IMG/VR virus record: IMGVR_UViG_2654587772_000001
Source: a virus
Lineage: Duplodnaviria > Heunggongvirae > Uroviricota > Caudoviricetes
DNA: 36,012 nucleotides
Reading direction: 5' to 3' (one strand)
Positions 1 to 34,596 of this stretch are shown here, piece after piece; positions within the stretch are counted from its first letter, which is position 1; each line of letters opens with the position of its first letter. The notes under the pieces are model-generated. The model ran no database searches, was not told where the DNA came from, and saw nothing but the letters and a program-made list of their open reading frames with translations. The position numbers were made by a program, and so were the translations under genes.

Positions 1-318
1 ATGAAAAAGATAGCTGCTATATCATTAATTAGTGTTTTTCTTATGTCTGGGTGTGCTGTACATAATGATGAGACAAGTATCGGTAAATTTGGTCTTGCAT
101 ATAAAAGTAATATTCAGCGTAAACTCGATAACCAATACTACACCGAAGCCGAAGCTTCTTTAGCCAGGGGCAGAATTTCTGGTGCAGAAAATATAGTAAA
201 AAATGATGCAGCTCATTTCTGTGTTACTCAGGGCAAAAAAATGCAGATAGTTGACCTGAAGACAGAAGGTGCAGGATTACATGGCGTCGCTCGTCTGACA
301 TTCAAATGTGGAGAGTGA
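1..318 (+). CDS. yegR: small lipoprotein, YegR-like (host flank)
   Basis: 105-aa ORF with lipoprotein signal peptide and lipobox (LMSGC); sits left of attL, matching the yegR neighbour of the cyaR/ogrK locus in E. coli K-12 as recalled from memory. Confidence 0.5.
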   Translation: MKKIAAISLISVFLMSGCAVHNDETSIGKFGLAYKSNIQRKLDNQYYTEAEASLARGRISGAENIVKNDAAHFCVTQGKKMQIVDLKTEGAGLHGVARLTFKCGE

Positions 319-475
319 GAATATTTTTTGGTAAGCGTCAAACATGCGCGTTCTGGTTGTGCGTAGCCGGAATCTGTACGAGCACGATGCCGTTACGTGA
401 AAGGCATCGTGCTATGAAGGGGGATTCTATCGATGTGGTCAATGGAAGACGGTGACCAGGATACGGCTTATGCAT

Positions 476-502
476 AAAAAATAAGCCCGTGTAAGGGAGA
501 TT
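476..502. repeat. attL core: 27-bp direct repeat AAAAAATAAGCCCGTGTAAGGGAGATT, identical to the copy at 34480..34506
   Basis: Exact 27-bp repeat seen at both prophage ends; matches the P2 att core as remembered and equals the 3' end of cyaR. Confidence 0.8.
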
Positions 503-581
503 TAGGGTGTCACCAGTAGGGGCTTTCAACGGTACAATGCGGGTTTGAGCGGCATAAATTACCACTGAAAGCCCTTAAACG

Positions 582-1595
582 TTACTCTACTGTGGACACT
601 GTGTGGACACTCTCGGCCTCAGTACCACCTCTTAGCGGATTAAGAGAAATGGCGTCCTGAAGGTACTCTGGCGCAAAATGAGCGTAAACCATAGTTTGTT
701 CAATCCGCGTGTGACCTAGTATCCGTTGTAGCGTGATAATACTTCCTCCATTAATCATGAAATGAGTGGCAAAGCTGTGCCTTAGTGCATGTGTGGCTTG
801 CCCCATTGGCAAATCCGGTTTTATTGCTTTCATTGTTCGTCTGAAGCGAGGGTAATCAGCATCAGGGAATAAAAAACCTCGTTTGTTATCCGCGATCATT
901 TTGGCAACAGCCTCTGAGATCGGGACGGTGCGTGGTTTGTTTGTTTTCGTTTTAACAAACGTGACGCGGTTATGGATGATATTTTCTGCTTTCAAACGAG
1001 CTGCTTCTCCCCAACGTGCTCCAGTACTCAGGCAAAGAATCGCAATCTTTTTATTGTCGCCGTCAAGAGCAGCAAGCAGTAAGGCAATTTCTTCCTGCGT
1101 GAGATAGCCTGTGTCTGGTTTTTCCTCCTTAAGCTTTTTTGTCCCTCTGATAGGGTGCTCACCAAAGAATAACTCCGCTTCAATCAGGGCTGTAAACATG
1201 CCGCTAATACATGTTAAATCACGATTGATACTCGAAGGTTTAATACCCTGACTTCTTCGGGTGGCGCAGTACTGGCTGATAAGCGATTTCGTAATTTGAA
1301 ATGCGCATGGGTCATTCGTTATTTTTGTGAAGATTTCAATTTTTCCAAGATTAGATTTCCCATGCTCTTCGTGTTTACCCTTTAAATCCCACCAGATCTG
1401 TGTCAGCTCCGACAGACGTCGCTTGTCTGTTGGTTTTGATAGCCATTCTTTATTGTGGTGGTTGTACAACGTGTATTTCTCGAAAGCGACAGCTTCGCTT
1501 TTCTTATCAAACTTCCTACGGATGCGTTTTCCATTACGTCCAGTAGGGCGGATGTCCACTTCATATCGACCATCATCGAGTTTTTTGATTGCCAT
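582..1595 (-). CDS. int: tyrosine integrase (P2 Int)
   Basis: 337-aa ORF; translation matches remembered P2 Int (MAIKKLDDGRYEVDIRPTGRNGKRIRRKF...) with C-terminal R..H..R..Y catalytic region; ATG at 1595. Confidence 0.95.
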   Translation of the reverse strand: MAIKKLDDGRYEVDIRPTGRNGKRIRRKFDKKSEAVAFEKYTLYNHHNKEWLSKPTDKRRLSELTQIWWDLKGKHEEHGKSNLGKIEIFTKITNDPCAFQITKSLISQYCATRRSQGIKPSSINRDLTCISGMFTALIEAELFFGEHPIRGTKKLKEEKPDTGYLTQEEIALLLAALDGDNKKIAILCLSTGARWGEAARLKAENIIHNRVTFVKTKTNKPRTVPISEAVAKMIADNKRGFLFPDADYPRFRRTMKAIKPDLPMGQATHALRHSFATHFMINGGSIITLQRILGHTRIEQTMVYAHFAPEYLQDAISLNPLRGGTEAESVHTVSTVE

Positions 1596-2124: not shown

Positions 2125-2400
2125 ATGAGCAAGCAAGTAACACTCATGACTGATGCGATTCCTTATCAGGAGTTCGCAAAACTAATAGGAAAATCGACAG
2201 GAGCGGTTCGTCGGATGATCGATAAAGGAAAGCTGCCTGTAATTGATTTGACCGATCCACAATCAGCTTCAGGTCGTGCAGGTGAATATTGGGTATACCT
2301 TCCGGCATGGAATAACGGACTAAAACTGGCTTATGAAAGCCGCCCTAAAGAGATTCGTGACGGCTGGTTGATGTGGTTAGGTCTCGGTGAACCACGTTAA
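2125..2400 (+). CDS. cox: Cox (excisionase / Pc repressor)
   Basis: 91-aa ORF, RBS GGAGGA about 6 nt upstream; translation matches P2 Cox. Confidence 0.9.
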   Translation: MSKQVTLMTDAIPYQEFAKLIGKSTGAVRRMIDKGKLPVIDLTDPQSASGRAGEYWVYLPAWNNGLKLAYESRPKEIRDGWLMWLGLGEPR

Positions 2401-2410
2401 GGAGAACCGT

Positions 2411-2581
2411 ATGAATGAACCTCGTTGTATTGCTCAGTTATTGCGTAACGAAAGCCCCAGGGCGATTGACTTCACCATCACCCACGGTAAGGGGCGTAAG
2501 GGAATCATTATCCGCACCAAAAAACAGAGTCCGTTAAAAAAGGCTCTGACCTTTCTGAAAAGCCGGAGGGTATGGAAATGA
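2411..2581 (+). CDS. small early protein (P2 orf78-like)
   Basis: ATG at 2411 preceded by AAGGAG; track ORF 2387..2581 starts at a GTG; position between cox and B. Confidence 0.5.
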   Translation: MNEPRCIAQLLRNESPRAIDFTITHGKGRKGIIIRTKKQSPLKKALTFLKSRRVWK

Positions 2582-3078
2582 CAGTGATGACGCTCAATCT
2601 CGTTGAAAAACAGCCAGCAGCTATGCGCCGGATAATTGGTAAGCATCTTGCCGTTCCTCGCTGGCAGGATACATGTGATTATTATAATCAGATGATGGAG
2701 CGCGAACGGCTAACGGTTTGCTTTCATGCGCAGTTAAAACAGCGTCACGCAACGATGCGTTTTGAAGAAATGAACGACGTCGAACGTGAACGACTGGTTT
2801 GTGCAATTGATGAATTGCGTGGCGCATTCTCAAAACGCCGTCAGGTCGGCGCAAGTGAGTATGCATATATTAGTTTTTTAACAGTCAGTCAGCGTCGTAC
2901 TTTATTTATGCATGCCGGATTGACTGAAAAAGAATTCAACCAGCCATACTGGCGAATTAATGAAGAATCATGTTACTGGCGTGATGCTTTATTCCGTGCA
3001 TTACGTGAATTATTCAGTCTGTTTGAGTATGCACCGACAATTCTGACGTCGGTAAAACCAGAGCAATATCTGCATTAA
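2572..3078 (+). CDS. B: replication protein B (helicase loader-like)
   Basis: 168-aa ORF (166 aa if started at ATG 2578) matching remembered P2 B; RBS GGAGGG upstream. Confidence 0.85.
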   Translation: MEMTVMTLNLVEKQPAAMRRIIGKHLAVPRWQDTCDYYNQMMERERLTVCFHAQLKQRHATMRFEEMNDVERERLVCAIDELRGAFSKRRQVGASEYAYISFLTVSQRRTLFMHAGLTEKEFNQPYWRINEESCYWRDALFRALRELFSLFEYAPTILTSVKPEQYLH

Positions 3079-23735: not shown

Positions 23736-25057
23736 CAGTGAAATACTACGCCATTCTGACTAATCAGGGCGCAGCACGGCTGGCTAACGCGACGATGCTC
23801 GGCAGTAAGCTGAATCTGACGCAAATGGCCGTTGGTGATGCGAATGGTGTCTTGCCGACACCAGACCCGGCACAGACAAAACTGATTAACCAGAAACGCA
23901 TCGCGCCGCTGAATCTTCTGAGTGTTGACCCGAACAACCAGAGCCAGATTATTGCGGAGCAAATCATCCCTGAGAACGAGGGCGGATTCTGGATCCGTGA
24001 GATTGGGCTTTATGATGATGAAGGCGTACTCATTGCGGTGGCGAACTGCCCGGAAACGTACAAACCGCAGTTGCAGGAAGGCAGTGGTCGTACCCAGACT
24101 ATCCGCATGATTCTGGTTGTCACGAATACCGAAGCTATCACGCTGAAAATCGACCCGTCGGTGGTACTGGCGACCCGTAAATACGTGGATGATGAAGTCC
24201 TGGAATTAAAGCTGTATGTGGATGACCAGATGAGAAACCACATTGCCGCACAGGATCCTCATACCCAGTATGCGCAGAAACATAATCCGACATTTACCGG
24301 AGAACCAAAAGCGCCGACGCCTGCCGCAGGAAATAACACCACGCGGATTGCGACCACTGAGTTTGTTCAGGCCGCTATTACCGCTCTGATTAACGGTGCG
24401 CCAGCCACACTGGACACACTGAAAGAAATTGCCGCGGCCATTAACAATGACCCGAAATTCAGCACCACCATTAACAATGCGCTGTCAGGTAAGCAGCCAC
24501 TGGATGAGACGCTGACTCATTTGAGTGGAAAGGATGTAGCTGGTCTTCTCGCATACCTTGGTTTGGGAGAAGGTTCTGCGTTGCCTGTTGGCATACCAGT
24601 TCCTTGGCCTTCAGCTACGCCGCCAACAGGCTGGCTGAAATGCAACGGGGCTGCTTTTTCGGCTGAAGAATACCCGGAACTGGCAAAGGCTTACCCGACA
24701 AATAAATTGCCTGATTTACGTGGTGAGTTTATTCGTGGCTGGGATGACGGGCGGGGGATTGATACAGGTCGCTCTATTTTAAGTATTCAGGGGTATGCAA
24801 CGGAGGATCATGCTCATGGATTACCGTCAAGATCCACGATTGTGACTGATGCAACGATTAATTTCTATTTTGATGAAAGCTGGGTAAATAGTGGCACTGA
24901 CATTATCAAAAGAGGAAACACAAACGATGCTGGATTACCAGCACCGGATTATGGAACCTTTAAAACATATAAACAATCAGTGGCTGGTTTAGGTGCCGCA
25001 GCCTCAGAAACGCGTCCGCGTAATATTGCATTTAACTATATCGTGAGGGCAGCCTGA
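23732..25057 (+). CDS. H: tail fibre protein H (constant N-terminal part plus currently expressed variable C-terminus)
   Basis: 441-aa ORF; N-terminus MTVKYYAILTNQGAARLANA as in P2 gpH; C-terminal tail-collar/receptor-binding-like region; crossover site inside the gene. Confidence 0.85.
   Translation: MTVKYYAILTNQGAARLANATMLGSKLNLTQMAVGDANGVLPTPDPAQTKLINQKRIAPLNLLSVDPNNQSQIIAEQIIPENEGGFWIREIGLYDDEGVLIAVANCPETYKPQLQEGSGRTQTIRMILVVTNTEAITLKIDPSVVLATRKYVDDEVLELKLYVDDQMRNHIAAQDPHTQYAQKHNPTFTGEPKAPTPAAGNNTTRIATTEFVQAAITALINGAPATLDTLKEIAAAINNDPKFSTTINNALSGKQPLDETLTHLSGKDVAGLLAYLGLGEGSALPVGIPVPWPSATPPTGWLKCNGAAFSAEEYPELAKAYPTNKLPDLRGEFIRGWDDGRGIDTGRSILSIQGYATEDHAHGLPSRSTIVTDATINFYFDESWVNSGTDIIKRGNTNDAGLPAPDYGTFKTYKQSVAGLGAAASETRPRNIAFNYIVRAA
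24548..24573. repeat. invertase crossover site (hix/gix-like), left copy inside H
   Basis: The reverse complement TTCTCCCAAACCAAGGTATGCGA matches TTCTCTCAAACCAACGTTTTATGG at 26455..26480 (14/15 over the conserved core stretch); resembles hix/gix sites. Confidence 0.45.
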
Positions 25058-29981: not shown

Positions 29982-32421
29982 CAATGTAAAATTACAGGTA
30001 TTGCTCAGGGCTGTTGACCAGGCATCCCGCCCGTTTAAATCCATCCGCACAGCGAGCAGGTCGCTGTCGGGCGATATCCGGGAAACACAAAAATCACTGC
30101 GCGAGCTGAACGGTCACGCATCCCGTATTGAGGGATTTCGCAAGACCAGTGCACAGCTCGCCGTGACTGGTCATGCACTTGAAAAGGCTCGGCAGGAGGC
30201 CGAAGCCCTTGCCACACAGTTTAAAAACACCGAACGTCCGACCCGTGCTCAGGCGAAAGTGCTGGAATCCGCAAAGCGTGCGGCGGAGGACTTACAGGCG
30301 AAATATAACCGCCTGACGGATTCCGTTAAACGCCAGCAGCGGGAACTGGCCGCTGTGGGAATTAATACCCGCAATCTTGCACATGATGAGCAGGGACTGA
30401 AAAACCGTATCAGTGAAACCACCGCACAGCTTAACCGTCAGCGTGACGCGCTGGCGCGTGTCAGTGCGCAACAGGCAAAACTTAACGCAGTAAAACAGCG
30501 TTATCAGGCCGGAAAGGAACTGGCCGGAAATATGGCCTCAGTGGGCGCTGCCGGTGTGGGGATTGCGGCGGCGGGAACGATGGCCGGTGTTAAGCTGCTG
30601 ATGCCCGGTTATGAGTTTGCGCAGAAAAACTCAGAATTGCAGGCTGTGCTGGGAGTGGCAAAAGACTCCGCCGAAATGACCGCACTCCGCAAGCAGGCGC
30701 GCCAGCTCGGCGACAATACCGCAGCCTCGGCAGATGATGCAGCCGGTGCACAGATAATCATCGCGAAAGCGGGTGGGGATGTTGATGCCATTCAGGCGGC
30801 AACGCCGGTCACGCTGAATATGGCGCTGGCGAACCGCCGCACGATGGAAGAAAACGCCGCCCTGCTGATGGGGATGAAATCCGCCTTTCAGCTTTCAAAC
30901 GATAAGGTCGCTCATATCGGGGATGTTCTCTCCATGACGATGAACAAAACCGCCGCCGATTTTGACGGCATGAGCGATGCGCTGACCTATGCCGCACCTG
31001 TGGCAAAAAATGCCGGTGTCAGCATTGAAGAAACCGCCGCAATGGTCGGGGCGCTGCATGATGCAAAAATCACAGGCTCAATGGCGGGGACGGGAAGCCG
31101 TGCCGTGTTAAGCCGCCTGCAGGCACCGACGGGAAAAGCATGGGATGCACTCAAAGAGCTTGGAGTGAAAACCTCAGACAGCAAGGGAAACACCCGGCCA
31201 ATATTTACCATTCTGAAAGAAATGCAGGCCAGTTTTGAGAAAAACCGGCTCGGTACTGCCCAGCAGGCTGAATACATGAAAACTATTTTCGGGGAGGAGG
31301 CCAGCTCAGCCGCCGCCGTGCTGATGACTGCCGCCTCAACCGGAAAGCTGGACAAACTGACCGCTGCGTTTAAAGCCTCAGACGGGAAGACCGCCGAGCT
31401 GGTAAATATCATGCAGGACAACCTAGGCGGTGACTTTAAGGAGTTTCAGTCTGCTTATGAGGCGGTGGGGACTGACCTGTTTGACCAGCAGGAAGGCGCA
31501 CTGCGTAATCTCACGCAGACGGCCACAAAGTATGTGTTAAAACTCGACGGCTGGATCCAGAAAAACAAATCACTGGCGTCAACCATCGGACTTATTGTCG
31601 GTGGCGCACTGGCGCTTATTGGCATCATCGGTGCAATTGGTCTTGTAGCCTGGTCGGTTATCACCGGCATCAATGCCATCATCGCGGCAGCAGGCGCAAT
31701 GGGGGCAATCTTCACGACGGTTGGCAGTGCTGTTATGACGGCCATCGGGGCGATTAGCTGGCCGGTTGTGGCCGTGGTGGCCGCCATTGTCGCCGGGGCG
31801 TTGCTTATCCGTAAATACTGGGAGCCTGTCAGCGCATTCTTTGGCGGTGTGGTGGAAGGGCTGAAAGCGGCATTTGCGCCGGTGGGGGAACTGTTCACGC
31901 CACTTAAACCGGTTTTTGACTGGCTGGGTGAAAAGTTACAGGCCGCGTGGCAGTGGTTTAAAAACCTGATTGCCCCGGTTAAAGCCACCCAGGACACCCT
32001 GAACCGTTGCCGTGACACGGGGGTCATGTTCGGGCAGGCACTGGCTGACGCGCTGATGCTGCCGCTTAATGCGTTCAACAAACTGCGCAGCGGTATTGAC
32101 TGGGTACTGGAAAAACTCGGTGTTATCAACAAAGAGTCAGACACACTTGACCAGACCGCCGTCAGAACTCATGCCGCCACGTATGGCACCGGTGGTTATA
32201 TTCCGGCGACCAGCTCTTATGCAGGTTATCAGGCTTATCAGCCGGTTACGGCACCGGCTGGCCGCTCTTATGTGGACCAGAGTAAAAACGAATATCACAT
32301 CAGCCTGACGGGTGGTACTGCGCCGGGGACACAGCTTGACCGCCAGTTACAGGATGCGCTCGAAAAATACGAGCGGGATAAACGTGCGCGCGCCCGTGCC
32401 AGCATGATGCATGACGGTTAA
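29974..32421 (+). CDS. T: tail tape measure protein T
   Basis: 815-aa ORF; coiled-coil N-terminal half and Gly/Ala-rich hydrophobic segment; P2 gpT length. Confidence 0.9.
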   Translation: MSNNVKLQVLLRAVDQASRPFKSIRTASRSLSGDIRETQKSLRELNGHASRIEGFRKTSAQLAVTGHALEKARQEAEALATQFKNTERPTRAQAKVLESAKRAAEDLQAKYNRLTDSVKRQQRELAAVGINTRNLAHDEQGLKNRISETTAQLNRQRDALARVSAQQAKLNAVKQRYQAGKELAGNMASVGAAGVGIAAAGTMAGVKLLMPGYEFAQKNSELQAVLGVAKDSAEMTALRKQARQLGDNTAASADDAAGAQIIIAKAGGDVDAIQAATPVTLNMALANRRTMEENAALLMGMKSAFQLSNDKVAHIGDVLSMTMNKTAADFDGMSDALTYAAPVAKNAGVSIEETAAMVGALHDAKITGSMAGTGSRAVLSRLQAPTGKAWDALKELGVKTSDSKGNTRPIFTILKEMQASFEKNRLGTAQQAEYMKTIFGEEASSAAAVLMTAASTGKLDKLTAAFKASDGKTAELVNIMQDNLGGDFKEFQSAYEAVGTDLFDQQEGALRNLTQTATKYVLKLDGWIQKNKSLASTIGLIVGGALALIGIIGAIGLVAWSVITGINAIIAAAGAMGAIFTTVGSAVMTAIGAISWPVVAVVAAIVAGALLIRKYWEPVSAFFGGVVEGLKAAFAPVGELFTPLKPVFDWLGEKLQAAWQWFKNLIAPVKATQDTLNRCRDTGVMFGQALADALMLPLNAFNKLRSGIDWVLEKLGVINKESDTLDQTAVRTHAATYGTGGYIPATSSYAGYQAYQPVTAPAGRSYVDQSKNEYHISLTGGTAPGTQLDRQLQDALEKYERDKRARARASMMHDG

Positions 32422-34159: not shown

Positions 34160-34378
34160 ATGTTTCATTGTCCTTTATGCCAGCATGCCGCACATGCGCG
34201 TACAAGTCGCTATATCACTGACACGACAAAAGAGCGTTATCACCAGTGTCAGAACGTGAATTGCAGCGCCACGTTCATCACTTATGAGTCGGTACAGCGA
34301 TACATCGTGAAGCCGGGAGAAGTCCACGCCGTAAGACCGCACCCGTTGCCGTCAGGGCAGCAAATTATGTGGATGTAA
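34160..34378 (+). CDS. ogr: late transcription activator Ogr (C4 zinc finger)
   Basis: 72 aa from ATG 34160 (MFHCPLCQHAAHARTSRYITDTTKERYHQCQNVNCSATF...); CxxC...CxxxxC zinc motif; track ORF starts upstream. Confidence 0.9.
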   Translation: MFHCPLCQHAAHARTSRYITDTTKERYHQCQNVNCSATFITYESVQRYIVKPGEVHAVRPHPLPSGQQIMWM

Positions 34379-34388
34379 TTACAAACAG

Positions 34389-34416
34389 AAAGCCCCTCAG
34401 TTGAGGGGCTTTTTTG
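34389..34416 (+). terminator. rho-independent terminator downstream of ogr
   Basis: Hairpin AGCCCCTC-AGTT-GAGGGGCT followed by TTTTTT. Confidence 0.7.
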
Positions 34417-34479
34417 TCGATGTGGTCAATATGTGGACGTGACCAGAAATAAATCCTTTTATTTCAATTTGTTGTGCGT

Positions 34480-34506
34480 AAAAAATAAGCCCGTGTAAGG
34501 GAGATT
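34480..34506. repeat. attR core (27-bp direct repeat), also the 3' end of cyaR
   Basis: Identical to 476..502. Confidence 0.8.
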
Positions 34507-34566
34507 ACACAGGCTAAGGAGGTGGTTCCTGGTACAGCTAGCATTTTATGGGTTATGTTTTTCAGC
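34480..34566 (-). ncRNA. cyaR: CRP-dependent sRNA CyaR (RyeE)
   Basis: Reverse complement reads GCTGAAAAACATAACCCATAAAATGCTAGCTGTACCAGGAACCACCTCCTTAGCCTGTGTAATCTCCCTTACACGGGCTTATTTTTT (87 nt), matching the remembered E. coli CyaR, with a terminal hairpin and U-tail. Confidence 0.85.
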
Positions 34567-34596
34567 GAAACGGATGATAACCTTAATAAATGCAGC

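Follow-up and report, generated by a model that had tools for sequence, protein, structure and literature searches.

Why should the bacterial DNA beside an integrated phage resemble the attachment arm of the phage itself? The window analysed here, a stretch of 36,012 nucleotides that agrees with E. coli strain ST2747 at every position of 300..502, carries a P2-like prophage next to cyaR. Both cyaR as a P2 insertion site and an ogr–D′ remnant at this locus in K-12 have already been published (PMC3032704). A first-pass annotation of this DNA had drawn attention to the host side of the left junction (attL), where the sequence between yegR and the att core looked like the P arm at the right end of the phage, and had proposed that the flank preserves the right end of an older P2-like element that once occupied the same site. 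The layout on which the question turns is the following.

1..318, + strand: yegR, encoding a 105-aa lipoprotein of family PF27694 (from the ORF and the yegR annotation in matching genomes)
319..475: non-coding stretch of 157 bp between yegR and the core
476..502, + strand: attL copy of the 27-bp core, AAAAAATAAGCCCGTGTAAGGGAGATT, an exact repeat of 34480..34506
503..616, + strand: P′ arm of the resident prophage, nearly identical to that of P2 (coordinates transferred from the P2 annotation)
591..609: two Int arm-type repeats, TGTGGACAC, which together with the Cox region make up the contents of the resident P′ arm (from the P2 annotation)
582..1595, − strand: integrase of the resident P2-like prophage, a 337-aa ORF annotated as a site-specific integrase in strain ST2747
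34160..34378, + strand: ogr of the resident prophage, in the same position as P2 ogr
34389..34415, + strand: intrinsic terminator of ogr and the F operon, a G+C-rich hairpin followed by a T-run (P2 annotation; fold of −19.6 kcal/mol)
34417..34446, + strand: Int arm-type sites of the resident P arm, corresponding to 430..459
34448..34481, + strand: IHF site in the resident attR (coordinates transferred from the P2 annotation)
34480..34506, + strand: attR copy of the 27-bp core, an exact repeat of the attL core
34483..34568, − strand: cyaR (RyeE) sRNA gene (Rfam RF00112, 100.7 bits, E = 3.5e-19), with yegQ beyond it

The att core makes up the 3′ half of the cyaR terminator and is contiguous with cyaR in empty sites.

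Resemblance of the host flank to the P arm

The resemblance centres on 430..459 (TCGATGTGGTCAAT-GGAAGACG-GTGACCAG), which matches 34417..34446 of the resident P arm, sharing its strand and lying to the same side of the core, and which begins one base earlier in both copies (430 and 34417) than had first been noticed. In the best local alignment between 319..475 and 34379..34479, TCGATGTGGTCAAT-GGAAGACGGTGACCAG stands against TCGATGTGGTCAATATGTGGAC-GTGACCAG, comprising a 14-nt exact run, the triplet GAC and then an 8-nt exact run; its score of 33 is equalled by none of 2000 dinucleotide shuffles, which reach 14.9 ± 2.2 (maximum 28). Two features can accordingly be entered beside the core.

430..459, + strand: probable decayed P arm (from the alignment, the P-arm profile scan and the P2 annotation of the Int P arm)
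460..475, + strand: probable rest of the old P arm beside the core, in a short allele from which 12–13 bp of the IHF-site region are missing

The matching stretch of P2, TCGATGTGGTCAATGTGTGGACGTGACC, is annotated in GenBank as “protein_bind Int, P arm” (24293..24320), with the IHF site and then the core beyond it, and the host copy can be read against this footprint part by part. Of the two Int arm-type repeats, the first, at 430..443 (TCGATGTGGTCAAT, with the repeat unit ATGTGGTCAAT), survives unaltered; the second has been destroyed (GGAAGACG) and reads GGAAGACGGTG in place of (A/G)TGTGGACGTG. The distal edge, GTGACCAG at 452..459, is preserved, and the Int footprint is identical to that of P2 at either edge. 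The pair of direct TGTGGxC repeats, about 11 bp apart, that is expected of a P2-type P arm is thus not found in 430..459. The match lies 45–46 nt from the core in the host B arm, as compared to 62–63 nt in the P arm. The trace therefore shares with the P arm of P2 attP its flank position and orientation, the first repeat and the footprint edges, but differs from it in the loss of the second repeat, in the absence of the IHF region from the common allele, and in having no ogr upstream.

A profile built from 35 distinct P arms, with the core excluded, was used in a blind scan of five prophage-free loci, and its top matches are the B arms, with E = 8e-5 and 0.012 for the long alleles described below and 0.015 for the short ones. 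The ancestral-type locus of Escherichia sp. E1V33 gave no significant match to this profile. When 319..475 was compared by BLAST with 50,697 phage records, just two matched over the full length (ON470606.1 and AY639599.1). As both of these contain host flank, no extant phage in the set carries this arm variant.

The long allele was met while att arms were being gathered from IMG/VR. It extends the B arm by 12–13 bp, occurs in approximately 196 of 5414 genomes (~4%), and is carried by 2022H047 and O158:H23, both of them prophage-free. As far as the core it reads TCGATGTGGTCAATGGAAGACGGTGACCAGGGATCAATCCGTATTTACAGCTTATGCAT and, set against the entire P2 P arm with the IHF region included, it shares 46 of 64 columns and is 4 nt shorter, at a near-native spacing of 58–59 nt versus the 62–63 nt of P2. 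The IHF-side tail taken alone is equalled by 5–31 of 5000 shuffles. A degenerate form of the IHF-region sequence can be made out in the long allele (GGGATCAATCCGTATTTACAG versus AAATAAATCCTTTTATTTCA, a remnant of the form AT.AATCC...TTTA.A), whereas the short allele of the window is without this region. The divergence of the long allele is even along the whole arm, unlike that of a recent conversion patch.

Could a resemblance of this kind have arisen by chance, or reflect a motif that was selected in the host and has nothing to do with phage? No exact run exceeds 14 bp, which is just under the 15-bp line that the first-pass annotation had drawn for a chance match, and the surroundings are otherwise ordinary intergenic DNA. 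The alignment as a whole nevertheless lies far beyond the shuffles, the P-arm profile has its top match at this place, the long allele carries the alignment on to the core, and the match coincides with the Int footprint on the right side of the core and in the right orientation. We regard either origin as hardly credible.

The yegS–cyaR islet among enteric bacteria

How widespread is this flank, and what did the site look like before it? The interval 300..502 is present in 5417 of 5426 complete E. coli genomes. Prophage-free strains, to which the first-pass annotation had looked for a comparison, carry it as well: O103 RM8385 and EC958 run from the same interval directly into the core and cyaR, and 2022H047 and O158:H23 also possess it. 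The interval belongs to an islet of ~776 bp (~0.8 kb) between yegS and cyaR, which holds yegR and is collinear in phylogroups A, B1 and B2 and in the strain of the window. Its GC content is 40.2% (38.4–38.7% in yegR), versus 49.7% in yegS and 54.1% in yegQ. EC958 (2331..2500 of its locus) and O158:H23 have an extra AT-rich insert of ~170 bp between the yegR stop and window position 323.

A scan for cyaR with one genome per species yielded 120 Enterobacteriaceae loci. In 65 of the 120 species the distance between the yegS start codon and the core is 74–144 bp (median 83); islets of 0.24–2.8 kb separate yegS from the core in a further 26, and for 29 the available flank yielded no yegS start. Among the 120, E. 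coli alone has yegR. Escherichia sp. E1V33 is of the compact kind, aligning with the sequence upstream of E. coli yegS as far as GAAAGTCG(T)GAGG (an end that can also be written ...GATGAAAGTCG(T)GAGG) and then passing into the core and cyaR, such that the break falls exactly at a degenerate core in E. coli. This locus, which comes from one genome, may represent the pre-insertion state or the product of a later clean excision.

The degenerate core in question, AAAAAGTCAGTTCAAGTATGGAGGATT, forms the left boundary of the E. coli islet at +87 from the yegS ATG, is identical to the core at 18 of 27 positions, and has p = 0.007 within the local scan window. Several of the islets in other species have a partial copy of the core at +78 to +93, counted from the yegS ATG, with up to 23/27 identities, and the recurrence of such copies at the same position reads as the signature of site-specific insertion there; the cyaR 3′ end is a general integration hot spot.

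Several other loci show features of their own. Seven loci of Enterobacter spp. share a conserved 633-bp islet between yegS and cyaR, with an ORF that ends ...IDELIAWIEEREGKK and whose TAA stop lies inside the att core. Independent P-arm-like fossils occur left of the cyaR core in S. enterica subsp. diarizonae (AATGTGGTCAATATTTAGATGTGGTGG) and in E. albertii, the latter comprising the second arm repeat and an IHF site, truncated by IS-like sequence.

If the E. coli islet was inserted as a unit, a P′ arm might be expected at its far end. Beyond the degenerate core, the sequence can be aligned in register with the P′ arm of P2 (GTTACCACCAGGAGCTTGCAATGG versus GTCACCAGTAGGGGCTTTCAACGG, onward to ATAAATT). 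In an anchored test this alignment has z = 4.0–4.8, with 0–5 of 3000 shuffles as good, and 390 control windows of real sequence reach at most 4 as against the observed 9. An unanchored scan of the prophage-free loci with a profile of 20 P′ arms returned a match at the predicted position at E of about 2, which is not significant, so that the claim is carried by the anchored test only, and the P′-like sequence beyond the degenerate core is to be taken as supportive, not proven.

The islet thus shows much of what is expected of a decayed element, with extra DNA exactly at the att core, direct repeats of the core and a deviant base composition; recognisable phage genes, which would also be expected, are absent from it. 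Homology to the P arm, fixation in E. coli, insertion relative to the outgroups and a flanking degenerate core are all observed. On this basis, 319..475 together with yegR and about 300 bp further left, outside the window, probably constitutes the remnant of an ancient integrative element with P2-type arms. The element was, we infer, a P2-like phage rather than some other element with P2-type att sites, and the original proposal for the attB flank finds its support in both comparisons that the first-pass annotation had suggested (with the P arm and with prophage-free strains) and, beyond these, in the P-arm footprint, the long allele, the outgroups and the degenerate far core.

Similarity alone gives no direction, however, and phages do acquire flanking DNA, so one may ask whether the P2-type P arm was instead captured from the bacterial flank by aberrant excision. 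Such a capture would have to be reconciled with the same two-repeat and IHF layout in the cyaR prophages of Citrobacter, Buttiauxella, Trabulsiella and others, whose hosts do not have the E. coli islet, and with the recurrence of TGTGGxC in the P′ arm as a functional Int site (P2 annotation). Furthermore, decay is seen on the host side, where the second repeat is lost and 12–13 bp are deleted, and outgroup hosts have no such sequence beside cyaR. Transfer from host to phage is very improbable in our judgement, and the remnant of an inserted element is the reading retained in what follows.

Contents of the islet

The first-pass annotation had noted a strong hairpin left of the attL core, and this is borne out: an 11-bp perfect stem pairs AGCACGATGCC (381..391) with GGCATCGTGCT (403..413) around an 11-nt loop, and the fold of 381..413, at −19 to −22 kcal/mol (z = −4.3 to −5.1), is equalled by 0 of 200 shuffles. 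The stem is conserved across phylogroups, a single C-to-T change in EC958 keeping a G.U pair on the + strand. The annotation had gone further and likened the succession of hairpin and arm to the right end of the phage, where the ogr terminator precedes the P arm. The arm half of this parallel stands; the hairpin half does not. A T-run is absent after 381..413 on either strand and a terminator scan of 1..700 returned 0 sites, and the hairpin was rejected as an intrinsic terminator for want of a T-run. It was likewise rejected as a former ogr terminator, being unrelated in sequence to that of P2, having no T-run and standing at a different spacing. It is possibly the 3′ stem-loop of the yegR mRNA.

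The sole gene inside the islet is yegR, whose homologues come mostly, indeed almost only, from E. coli and Shigella. YegR itself had no significant hit in the Pfam copy that was searched, and the assignment to PF27694 derives from precomputed hits. PHROG 21109 matches YegR with E = 2e-72, probably owing to mis-set prophage boundaries or flank contamination. The “phage” record ON470606.1 holds the host galactitol repressor gene, yegS and yegR, and the “phage” record AY639599.1 holds part of yegR plus yegQ; a tblastn search of phages with yegR matched just these two host-flank records and nothing in genuine phage genomes. Divergent homologues (44–76% identity) lie within an IS-rich island or stand alone at unrelated chromosomal loci of enterics, and their similarity is confined to the coding sequence, not reaching 319..475. 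Given such placements, yegR is clearly mobile.

The suggestion that yegR is itself remnant cargo survives in part. Its position inside the islet and its low GC make it a candidate cargo of the ancient islet, and it presumably arrived with the element. As specifically phage cargo it was rejected, having no phage homologue and relatives at unrelated loci that share the coding sequence only. In other genera, 0.4–0.95 kb of extra genes lie between ogr and the P arm (Citrobacter youngae, another Enterobacteriaceae isolate and Trabulsiella guamensis), in P2-like prophages or remnants at cyaR; in T. guamensis the gene next to an intact P arm encodes a lipoprotein on the + strand and ends 168 nt before the core end. 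Such extra genes make cargo in that position plausible.

One further stretch of the islet bears on its origin.

323..375, + strand: non-coding DNA downstream of yegR that weakly resembles the right end of coliphage 186 close to cos

In a BLAST comparison with the whole phage collection, 323..371 aligns with 30517..30565 (of 30624) of phage 186 at 39/49 identities and E = 0.01. The matching site in the phage is downstream of orf97 and the terminator t95b, 60–110 bp from cos. The two sequences share the 16-mer CGTTCTGGTTGTGCGT, with flanks that are 31/60 identical, as compared to at most 21/60 around the other non-E. coli occurrences of this 16-mer in IMG/VR; the IMG/VR scan gave 51 matches, mostly unrelated chance ones, and no intermediate between 186 and E. 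coli. The similarity is marginal and does no more than hint that the islet contains another fragment of phage origin. In P2-family phages cargo genes are found beside cos, and the similarity to 186, if real, would place yegR in such a position. Elsewhere, tblastn of the E. coli flank and islet found no int, ogr or D gene or fragment, and when the 328 bp of the islet nearest yegS were compared with phages by BLAST, the only match was a record with host flank.

Might the islet be, then, a non-phage islet or satellite with P2-type arms, or a yegR insert into which transient P2 prophages introduced arm sequence piecemeal by gene conversion? An islet without phage genes would suit either version, as would the movement of yegR-family genes as single-gene islets to unrelated loci and the small, non-phage-looking cyaR islets of many species, bounded as they are by partial core copies. 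Neither version sits easily with a P arm and, more weakly, a P′ arm in the order and orientation of one P2-type element, with the even divergence of the long allele along the arm, or with the possible similarity to the cos-proximal region of 186, a P2-family phage. We consider such an origin unlikely.

Proposed history of the site and reuse of its junction

How would the remnant of an ancient P2-type element have come to form part of the present attB? The ancestral order would have been yegS, a spacer of 80–140 bp, the cyaR terminator (with the core), cyaR and yegQ. Insertion into the 3′ end of cyaR in an E. coli ancestor would have produced yegS, a left copy of the core, the P′ arm, the element, the P arm, the core and cyaR, and the element would then have been almost wholly lost, decaying to ~0.8 kb. 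What is left over would comprise the degenerate left core, the faint P′-like sequence, yegR, the possible cos-proximal fragment, the hairpin and the decayed P arm, the right core having stayed intact because it is the cyaR terminator. Prior to the arrival of the resident prophage, 476..502 would have been the 3′ end of the cyaR terminator and at the same time the attR core of the ancient element, and this retained, old attR-type junction would serve as the present attB for P2 and its relatives. Since the resident prophage would have integrated at that junction, its attL would be made up of the fossil P arm, the core and a live P′ arm.

The first-pass annotation had compared the trace with the ogrK/yegZ remnant of K-12. 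The two do lie at the same locus, but K-12 has both the islet and D′–ogrK, which makes the islet the older and a separate event. The K-12 locus consists of the fossil interval, a truncated attL core, D′, ogrK, a complete P arm, the core and cyaR. Its attL core is cut after window position 493, where AAAAAAATAAGCCCGTGTAG is followed by CAGAGTTC (K-12 derivative locus 2690..2700). Given that the K-12 remnant begins inside the attL core, the deletion that made it must have run from within attL into gene D, in a prophage that had integrated at this very fossil junction. The D′/yegZ–ogrK–attR remnant resembles the trace in being a decayed P2-type element at the same site with a surviving right junction and core. 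It is young, however, and hardly differs from P2 in D′, ogr, the terminator, the whole P arm or the IHF site, whereas the trace is far older, is fixed in E. coli, holds no phage gene and is located to the left of the K-12 remnant.

Tandem accretion at the 3′ ends of RNA genes is a familiar process, as are the cis-mobilisable remnants (CIMEs) left by decayed ICEs or prophages. The trace has in common with these an att-flanked decayed element whose distal att was reused, resulting in an array of remnant, att, new element and att. It differs from CIMEs in that its left core (18/27) is too degenerate for co-excision of the remnant, and no mobilisation is implied. A decayed element with a reused distal att being a well-known phenomenon, the locus offers a new example and no new mechanism. 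A full-text literature search for yegR with ogrK or cyaR, a scope outside which the early P2 att papers fall, did not find the yegR islet described as an older att-flanked remnant.

Is the fossil arm still of consequence? The remnant is presumably now functionally inert for recombination. Alternatively, since one Int arm-type site is intact and the long allele has, in addition, an IHF-like site spaced almost as in P2, attB could behave like an attR and attract P2 Int through its arm-binding domain, an idea that we think improbable. Were the arm active, it could aid the preference of P2 for the cyaR site over secondary sites, it could alter excision in that attL would have arm sites on both sides like attP, and the short/long polymorphism would tune lysogeny among strains.

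Viewed as the remnant of an earlier element, the locus has several implications. First, the P2 attB of E. coli would be the surviving junction of an earlier relative rather than pristine host DNA. Second, the E. coli-specific orphan yegR between yegS and cyaR would be accounted for. Third, the 3′ end of cyaR has been struck repeatedly, with islets in at least 26 of 120 species and independent P-arm fossils in three lineages. Finally, the locus counsels caution with prophage-boundary callers and phage databases, for arm-like sequence and yegR have been swept into “phage” records and a PHROG family.

The core also varies among strains. The stem of the cyaR terminator (34480..34515) contains one U.G wobble in the window, O103 and K-12, in all of which core position 13 is C, as in P2 attP, and the 5′ half of the stem is GCCTGTGT; the wobble may have been left behind by a core of phage origin. 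EC958 (B2) has T at core position 13, which yields a perfect pair in the cyaR terminator.
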